Translations under genes and position numbers: made by a program
DNA from: a virus
Lineage: Duplodnaviria; Heunggongvirae; Uroviricota; Caudoviricetes
Direction: 5' to 3' (one strand)
Length of the DNA: 64,000 nucleotides
IMG/VR virus record: IMGVR_UViG_2703718819_000006
The notes under the pieces: generated by a model
Databases searched by the model: none
Told to the model about the DNA's origin: nothing
What the model saw: the letters and a program-made list of their open reading frames with translations, nothing else
Shown here: one piece after another, positions 45,186 through 45,953 of the stretch
How positions within the stretch are numbered: position 1 is the stretch's first letter
How the letters are laid out: each line of letters starts with the position of its first letter

Positions 45186-45953
45186 ATGGACGATTTATCG
45201 GTATACGCGAGATCATTGGATAAGGCTAAATACTATGTTTACTGTCTCTATGATACAGAAGACAAGATGAAAAGACCGTTTTACATAGGAAAAGGCAAAT
45301 CGACTCGTTGTCTCGATCACATCAAGTATCCCGATGACTCTCCCAAATCCATGCGGATCAAAGAACTTTTGGCTAATAAAAAATTAGGCATAGATATACT
45401 TCGTCATGGTATGGATGAAACCACAGCCAAACTTGTTGAGGCGACATGCATCGACCTTATGGGGGTCGGAGAGCTTACGAATAAGGTACGAGGAAGTGGT
45501 TCCATGATGGGCAGAATATCACTGGACGCCTACCATCACTTAGTGCTGCAAGAGGAAACTGAAATTGCTCCTGAGCACGCCGGTCTTGCCTTCCTGCTAA
45601 ACAGCACCTACAAGTCAGGAATGTCCGCTCTGGCATTATATGAAGCTACGCGTGGCGTATGGGCAAAGGTTCCAAGAGACGAGAATCTCAAATATGCCTA
45701 CGCTACATATGGTGGGCTGATAATGGAAGTTTATCAGATTGAATGCTGGGTCAAAGCCGGTTCTCAGCAGTACTTTACAAGGGATATAGCTCTTGGCCCT
45801 GACACAAAACGTTATGAATTTGTTGGCAGAATAGCCGATGAGCATATTAGAAAACTGTATGTAGGCAAATTAATCAAGAAGCCACCAAGCTACGGTAGCC
45901 CTTTTGTGAAGGTTGGGGTGGTTAGGACTGAACATAGTGTTAGCGCGGCATAA
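45186..45953 (+). CDS. GIY-YIG nuclease-domain protein (possible free-standing homing endonuclease)
   Basis: 255-aa plus-strand ORF between minus-strand genes; N-terminus YYVYCLYDTEDKMKRPFYIGKGKSTR fits the GIY...YIG...R pattern. Confidence 0.55.
   Translation: MDDLSVYARSLDKAKYYVYCLYDTEDKMKRPFYIGKGKSTRCLDHIKYPDDSPKSMRIKELLANKKLGIDILRHGMDETTAKLVEATCIDLMGVGELTNKVRGSGSMMGRISLDAYHHLVLQEETEIAPEHAGLAFLLNSTYKSGMSALALYEATRGVWAKVPRDENLKYAYATYGGLIMEVYQIECWVKAGSQQYFTRDIALGPDTKRYEFVGRIADEHIRKLYVGKLIKKPPSYGSPFVKVGVVRTEHSVSAA

Follow-up and report, generated by a model that had tools for sequence, protein, structure and literature searches.

A divergent short-loop PD-T4-3/CMoRE-like gene as probable defence cargo beside the partition operon of an SSU5-like phage-plasmid

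PD-T4-3 is the closest described relative of the gene analysed here, an open reading frame (ORF) of 255 amino acids (aa) with an ATG start at 45186-45953, plus strand, of IMG/VR virus record IMGVR_UViG_2703718819_000006 (Caudoviricetes); the whole 64,000-nucleotide stretch is called the window below, and the product of the gene the window protein. PD-T4-3, from E. coli ECOR68, O157:H7 and APEC O1 (PDB 9U75, 9U7U; PMC12923530, and Vassallo et al. 2022 as cited there), now goes by the name CMoRE after its characterisation as a type IV restriction endonuclease made of a single protein (Liu et al. 2026, PMC12923530). According to that study, it protects E. coli about 10^5-fold against T2, T4 and T6 by direct defence, with no abortive infection, and it binds and cleaves DNA containing 5-hydroxymethylcytosine (5hmC) or its glucosylated form (5ghmC), at CN11/N9G, but not DNA containing cytosine or 5-methylcytosine (5mC). 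The N-terminal GIY-YIG domain carries a "GIYxY-YIG" motif (Y17, Y19, Y31), mutation of the catalytic residues abolishes activity, and the C-terminal domain binds 5-hydroxymethyl-dCTP, Y127 touching the 5-hydroxyl of 5hmC through its main-chain oxygen (PMC12923530). The active site is autoinhibited by an acidic loop; with four loop charges neutralised the enzyme becomes more active, cuts unmodified DNA and is toxic, and the loop is present in "most", not all, family members (PMC12923530). CMoRE is weakly active on phages with arabinosyl-hydroxymethylcytosine (arabinosyl-hmC), and PD-T4-3 is active in its native E. coli host. A homologue with 48% identity degrades the DNA of T4 and spares that of T4-GT7 (PMC12366544), and PD-T4-3Capno from Capnocytophaga also degrades Mu DNA (Rodriguez-Rodriguez et al. 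2025, PMC12366544). A 2025 DefenseFinder survey reports that SSU5-group phage-plasmids from E. coli and Shigella carry PD-T4-3 among other systems; its supplementary table mentions the system 44 times. A partial protein with 100% identity is on record for S. sonnei (P0040), so the survey's PD-T4-3 is very probably the window gene; the assignment is therefore not new in kind, although it is absent from RefSeq product names and PHROGs.

Based on our findings, we propose that the window gene probably encodes a divergent, short-loop PD-T4-3/CMoRE modification-dependent restriction endonuclease, carried as swappable defence cargo in a slot next to the partition (par) operon of an SSU5-like phage-plasmid. 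Membership of the family and a role in defence are both, in our judgement, well founded enough to be called likely; whether the substrate is specifically 5hmC/5ghmC is evenly balanced. An earlier note on this DNA had described a plus-strand gene running opposite to its neighbours, and checks of the ORF and its neighbours confirm the coordinates, the strand and the orientation opposite to all flanking genes: it is the sole sizeable plus-strand gene amid a long minus-strand run. The GIY-YIG motif pair reported in that note is likewise present (Y17-V-Y19 ... F32-Y33-I34-G35, within an N-terminus that reads ...K-Y-Y17-V-Y19-C-L-Y-D...P-F-Y33-I-G-K-G-K), and the Pfam model LEM-3_GIY-YIG scores 30.1 bits, above its gathering score of 27 (E 5.5e-7). 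The 170 aa that the note gave for the C-terminal domain are too many: the domain spans about 137-147 aa (residues ~109 to 245 or 255) after a disordered linker. The protein is thus laid out as follows.

45186-45464, plus strand: N-terminal GIY-YIG domain (N99 lies just beyond it, in the linker)
45465-45509, plus strand: flexible inter-domain linker, residues 94-108, with a predicted local distance difference test score (pLDDT) below 50 in the AlphaFold2 model
45510-45953, plus strand: C-terminal modification-sensing domain (residues 109 to ~245), disordered tail and stop codon

Both domains are homologous to those of PD-T4-3. The PADLOC hidden Markov model PDLC04031 PD-T4-3 matches residues 11-231 of the window protein over profile positions 11-238 of 256 (E 1.3e-23, 81.9 bits; judged by E-value and bits), and in a phmmer search of the PDB the only matches are the PD-T4-3 entries 9U7U/9U7Z and 9U75/9U8D (E 2e-15, residues 12-230). 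An AlphaFold2 model built from 48 homologues (pLDDT 81.8) shows two domains with the disordered linker between them; density for the linker is likewise absent from the CMoRE crystal structures (PMC12923530). With the full-length model as query, the top four Foldseek matches are PD-T4-3 structures (E 1.8e-11 to 3e-10, probability 1.0, 259-272 columns), followed by UvrC GIY-YIG domains. The global template-modelling score against 9U75 is low (0.38, root-mean-square deviation [rmsd] 16 A), which we attribute to a different placement of the domains across the flexible linker because each domain alone matches well; the fold of the sensor domain is close to that in 9U75 (rmsd 2.9 A). Taken together, the sequence and fold matches to PD-T4-3 identify the C-terminal domain as the CMoRE modification-sensing domain. 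The family itself is large, with 1781 clusters (50% identity) at E <=1e-3, 632 at E <=1e-10 and 58 at E <=1e-30.

The seven catalytic residues are intact and correspond one-to-one to those of CMoRE:

CMoRE Y17: Y17 in the window protein
CMoRE Y19: Y19 in the window protein
CMoRE Y31: Y33 in the window protein
CMoRE R39: R41 in the window protein
CMoRE H43: H45 in the window protein
CMoRE E93: E85 in the window protein
CMoRE N105: N99 in the window protein

All seven are the same throughout 48 subfamily sequences, and 106-107 of the 109 sequences in a wider alignment have them. That alignment consists of the window protein, its 107 nearest full-length family representatives, and CMoRE, and so is a sample biased towards the query. 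The window protein resembles CMoRE in being the product of one gene of ~255 aa with an N-terminal GIY-YIG domain, the GIYxY-YIG signature, the same R/H/E/N catalytic set and a flexible linker, and in residing on mobile elements. Across the tetramer (dimer-of-dimers) interface the alignment keeps V92 as V84 and places R73 at R80, whereas L96 is replaced by C88, an invariant cysteine across the subfamily. A nuclease activity that depends on base modification would be expected from this likeness, as would an anti-phage phenotype.

Several observations weigh against this assignment. Identity to the characterised enzyme (9U7U) is just ~32% (BLASTP, 32% across residues 16-230), and function is assigned here by homology. 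RefSeq names the product just "LEM-3-like GIY-YIG domain-containing protein", and NCBIfam has no model for it. A sigma-70 consensus scan upstream of the gene found no strong or convincing promoter. The 15-residue insert with D52-D53-D54-E55 of CMoRE is replaced by a loop five residues shorter, in which D50-D51 are left of the four consecutive acidic residues. Finally, the segment around the 5hmC-contacting Y127 is not conserved in the window protein and aligns poorly with it; the modification specificity is therefore not readable from the sequence, and we do not claim the same specificity. PD-T4-3Capno, which degrades Mu DNA too, is likewise a divergent member and a modification-dependent nuclease, and it shows that function can be retained at low identity.

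The short loop deserves closer attention. In the window protein it measures 12 residues (IKYPDDSPKSMR) as compared with 20 in CMoRE, no run of four consecutive D/E residues lies between alpha2 and alpha3, and a further four-residue deletion precedes the RHG motif. A 12-residue loop is also found in 66 of the 109 aligned sequences, and a run of at least three acidic residues in 4 of them. Judged from this alignment, the short loop is a trait of a whole branch, not a quirk of the window sequence. Since the acidic loop is a feature of "most", not all, family members, its shortness would mark a branch and is compatible with membership. Because removal of the charges makes CMoRE active on unmodified DNA and toxic, how the short-loop branch stays safe is a testable question.

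These features bear on the possibility that the protein has the same family and architecture but another target or a looser gate between self and non-self: it might act on glucosylated or arabinosylated hmC variants, on Mu-type carbamoylmethyl-adenine, or more broadly on incoming mobile DNA such as rival plasmids and phages. The missing acidic lid, the lack of conservation of sensor residues near the 5hmC contact and the plasticity of the family (Mu DNA for PD-T4-3Capno, weak activity on arabinosyl-hmC phages for CMoRE) would all fit, and so would a resemblance of the sensor to PUA-like readers, a group that reads many modifications. This resemblance to EVE/YTH/ASCH domains is a weak fold similarity without sequence similarity, and involves the following structures.

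PUA-like: ASCH (5GUQ) and AF2351
YTH: Mmi1, YTHDC1, YTHDC2 and CPSF30
EVE: THYN1 bound to 5mC DNA, PH1033 and Rpa0253
Restriction enzymes: the N-terminal reader of S. marinus McrB, and the modification-dependent VcaM4I

PUA-like readers also occur in other type IV enzymes, the PvuRts1I/AbaSI and MspJI families. Type IV enzymes of this kind (McrB with an EVE/YTH-like reader, 6P0G and 6N0S; VcaM4I, 6YEX) differ from the window protein in that their nuclease folds are HNH, PD-(D/E)XK or the GTP-dependent McrC. Nothing direct speaks against a different target, which we nevertheless regard as unlikely; the sensor is close in fold to that of 9U75, as described above, and the family members tested so far all act on T-even DNA.

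The position of the gene carries the second part of our proposal. The region shares 99.4-99.8% identity with Escherichia phage CMS-2020a and with non-mobilizable E. coli plasmids of ~100 kb; with Salmonella phage SSU5 the figure is 84%. From these matches the window is an SSU5-like phage-plasmid of E. coli, an identity that fits the presence of NrdAB, a MazG-like protein, SbcCD, a Rep3 initiator, ligase, primase, helicase, ParA, lysis genes and tail fibres. The earlier note had called the gene inserted, and the comparison with relatives supports this: in blastn alignments to relatives with other cargo, homology ends at 45074-45084 and resumes at 46008. The cassette so delimited comprises 933 bp (45075-46007), between the stop codon of the par partner gene and a backbone hairpin. 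In the alignments the left junction lies directly after ...ACAGAAGCAGG (45074) and the right junction at the stop codon of the par partner. The nuclease gene is alone in it. The elements of the slot and its surroundings are listed here.

42777-44117, minus strand: DnaB-like helicase, flanking gene
44161-44910, minus strand: 249-aa hypothetical protein (hyp249), flanking gene
45018-45074, minus strand: backbone inverted repeat with 21-nt arms and an AT-rich centre; left edge of the slot, its right arm being the left junction
45075-45185, plus strand: cassette-borne upstream region, with the presumed ribosome-binding site AAGAGA 7-12 nt before the ATG
45968-46007, plus strand: intrinsic terminator of the nuclease gene, with a 14-bp perfect stem, a 7-nt loop and T5, abutting the convergent par partner stop codon
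46006-46365, minus strand: 119-aa par partner (parB-like), which with ParA forms the right border of the slot; role assigned from position
46365-47033, minus strand: ParA, annotated in relatives as ParA or AAA family ATPase
46006-47033, minus strand: partition module; in all slot variants homology resumes exactly at the stop codon of the partner gene

On the minus strand, the repeat at 45018-45074 folds with -28.1 kcal/mol (z -6.8) and is followed by UCUUUU, and it is kept in all slot variants, including the empty one. Because of this fold and the UCUUUU, it probably serves both the minus-strand par operon and any minus-strand cargo as a rho-independent terminator, and the slot would then lie between this terminator and the final par stop codon. 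Cargo on the minus strand lengthens the par operon; cargo on the plus strand, such as the nuclease gene, comes with an upstream region and a terminator of its own. The upstream region 45075-45185 presumably carries the promoter of the nuclease gene; it moves together with the gene, and its identity in diverged backbones is 97-99%. The terminator, also claimed in the earlier note, lies 15 nt past the stop codon. Its stem (45968-45981 with 45989-46002; 16 pairs in the fold) is followed by TTTTT and folds with -29 kcal/mol (z -4.8), a value reached by 0 of 200 shuffles; a simple consensus scanner missed it, though folding shows it. In each alternative cargo a different hairpin abuts the par stop codon.

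Some further observations on the cassette may be recorded. The terminator loop AATGTAC (45982-45988) is the exact reverse complement, GTACATT, in CP067400 and CP101235 (L014/L016, ~2781-2787), with the stem unchanged; this is a hairpin-loop inversion. Rfam gave sub-threshold miRNA-type matches on 44500-47400, to the backbone hairpin alone, which we judged to be chance. An 8-nt perfect inverted repeat at the cassette ends (GCATAACT at 45074-45081 and AGTTATGC at 45966-45973) was treated as probably chance too, since about a dozen such pairs are expected by our estimate in 1.25 kb and 20 were found. The GC content of the cassette (0.36-0.49) showed no clear difference from the backbone.

The gene is patchily distributed. 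Of 5426 complete E. coli genomes, 107 have it, in every case on a plasmid and never on a chromosome; in PLSDB it is present in 136 plasmids, 132 of them at >=99% identity. Since the flanking backbone occurs in 259-264 E. coli genomes, ~41% of related elements carry the gene. The comparison of presence and absence that the earlier note had suggested thus shows a gene carried by 107 of ~260 related E. coli phage-plasmids, not one of universal, syntenic presence. In relatives the slot holds other things:

CP027369: nothing (~36 bp)
Phage Cyrano and SSU5: DUF2971 protein (PADLOC candidate PDC-S31, E 3e-41)
CP054387: 567-aa KAP-family NTPase (PDC-S49, E 3e-22)
L006, 1477-2550, plus strand: 357-aa protein, no Pfam or PADLOC match
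L007, 1575-2252, plus strand: 225-aa protein, no Pfam or PADLOC match
L008, 1383-2550, minus strand: 140+250-aa pair, no Pfam or PADLOC match

The DUF2971/PDC-S31 and KAP NTPase/PDC-S49 genes are themselves candidate defence genes, and their presence at the same position supports the defence reading of the window gene. The 357-aa, 225-aa and 140+250-aa cargo are, from their slot neighbours, candidate unrecognised defence genes. The nuclease gene is 99.1-99.2% identical in elements whose helicase, hyp249 and parA are just 76-87% identical to the window, and the high-identity tract reaches merely ~75-300 bp into the flanks in such diverged backbones. A near-identical cassette in diverged backbones indicates recent movement between them by recombination in conserved flanks. 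This arrangement recalls the defence hotspots of temperate phages and satellites such as P2 and P4 (PMC13586616, PMC8628076), which are fixed sites between conserved genes with alternative, mostly defence cargo swapped via conserved flanks; here, unlike there, the slot belongs to an SSU5-like phage-plasmid and lies immediately 3' of the partition operon. Full-text searches of the literature found no paper on the par-proximal slot of SSU5-like phage-plasmids.

The same distribution could be read in another way, the one that the earlier note had put first: a free-standing GIY-YIG homing endonuclease of the Seg/I-TevI type would cut a specific site in phage-plasmids lacking the gene and be copied in by recombinational repair. 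A patchy, self-contained cassette, the empty-site allele of CP027369, 99% identity of the cassette in diverged backbones with short co-converted flank tracts, and the label "putative homing nuclease" on homologues in jumbo phages would all be in keeping with this. Flank co-conversion, however, does not discriminate, because it is equally expected from ordinary homologous recombination and is seen with non-nuclease cargo too. Cargo that is neither related nor a nuclease is swapped at this slot within identical boundaries, and the mobility therefore does not call for homing activity. Homologues with 73-79% identity are solitary chromosomal genes between housekeeping genes, in Salmonella beside guaA and in Providencia within an islet close to mutS. 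The match to PHROG 314 "homing endonuclease" reaches merely E 0.28, over the motif region, and the window protein belongs to phrog_5356 "unknown function" (E 1e-99). T4 Seg proteins and I-TevI have sequence-specific C-terminal DNA-binding modules and unmodified cognate sites; in the window protein a Pfam search (E up to 1) found no NUMOD/IENR1, helix-turn-helix or zinc finger, and the C-terminal domain is the CMoRE sensor. Homing is thus very improbable, and it is the alternative that the earlier note had kept in reserve, another nuclease role such as defence, that the evidence favours.

A third possibility is a nuclease of the phage-plasmid's own lytic cycle, degrading host or competitor DNA like the GIY-YIG enzyme EndoII of T4, or an anti-defence factor. 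The element is a phage, after all, and full-length homologues exist in virulent jumbo phages. Most related phage-plasmids do without the gene, which makes it dispensable; it lies outside the lytic operons with its own transcription signals, its solitary chromosomal homologues sit in non-phage contexts, and it carries a modified-base sensor domain where EndoII has a single domain. We consider this the least probable of the readings, with hardly any chance of being correct.

The jumbo-phage homologues merit a remark of their own. They are 24.8-36.2% identical to the window protein and are labelled "G-I-Y Y-I-G endonuclease" or "putative homing nuclease". In the Serratia/Pectobacterium phages Moabite (L017, 2968-3732), 2050HW, BUCT660 and vB_ParM-25 they cover 85-88% of the protein, with both domains; partial matches come from Klebsiella N1M2 (71%), Pseudomonas OBP (52%) and Pantoea Survivor (39%). 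Possibly these homologues are enzymes of the CMoRE type that serve in competition between phages.

Returning to a PD-T4-3/CMoRE-like restriction enzyme as the preferred reading, we suggest a plausible mechanism. The C-terminal domain would bind DNA with modified bases (5hmC/5ghmC in the characterised enzymes), and the N-terminal GIY-YIG domain, with Y17, Y19, Y33, R41, H45, E85 and N99, would then cut the modified DNA. An incoming T-even-type genome would be destroyed directly, while unmodified DNA of the host and the phage-plasmid would be spared, and the lysogen, hence the plasmid-prophage, would be protected from virulent competitors. Homologous recombination in the conserved flanks could carry the self-contained 933-bp cassette from one diverged phage-plasmid to another. 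A dCMP-hydroxymethylase-like gene would make the element self-sensitive; none was seen among 10 ORFs of the nucleotide-metabolism and replication region, which holds NrdAB, the MazG-like protein, SbcCD and Rep3, in a scan that was not exhaustive.

The neighbourhood offers some side observations. The 119-aa par partner has no Pfam match, so its role is taken from its position; together with a C-terminal sequence that by eye resembles a ribbon-helix-helix, the position points to a small partition partner that binds the centromere. In phage Cyrano the gene (L001, 3896-4255) is labelled "RelE/ParE putative toxin", a label that looks doubtful. Insertion sequences (IS1203; IS100 with istAB) lie inside the 3.2-kb stretch from helicase to parA in NZ_CP028433, NZ_CP028430 and NZ_CP017847, and the region therefore tolerates insertions. 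The promoter side of parA and the lysis genes flank a second variable slot (47313-48150, plus strand), a position at which PhiR41_1 and SSU5 each have two different genes; in the window it holds:

47313-47621, plus strand: DUF1778/TacA-type antitoxin
47629-48150, plus strand: GNAT TacT/KacT-type toxin

Current understanding is not overturned by the window gene. What may be of residual interest is the missing acidic lid, a sensor of possibly PUA-like ancestry and the new defence candidates that the slot may supply. Going further, and tentatively, we may picture the window protein as representing a large short-loop branch of PD-T4-3/CMoRE without the acidic safety-catch, which may discriminate self from non-self differently or read another modification; instead of the "distinct fold" that has been reported, its sensor may have that of a greatly diverged PUA-like reader, and the par-proximal slot may be an undescribed defence hotspot whose 357-aa, 225-aa and 140+250-aa cargo are candidate new systems.

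A gene that goes by "hypothetical" or "LEM-3-like GIY-YIG" in the annotation of ~100 complete E. coli plasmids, and by "homing nuclease" in that of some jumbo phages, would thus be one of a defence family whose mechanism has been solved. The phage-plasmid-borne enzyme is present in about 2% of completely sequenced E. coli; such strains may resist T-even-type phages with modified DNA, which is relevant to phage therapy and typing. The slot could be a cheap source of new defence genes, and short-loop variants could serve as 5hmC-mapping reagents with different properties. For the family as a whole, the natural loss of the acidic lid would provide a test of how its members avoid cutting the DNA of their hosts.
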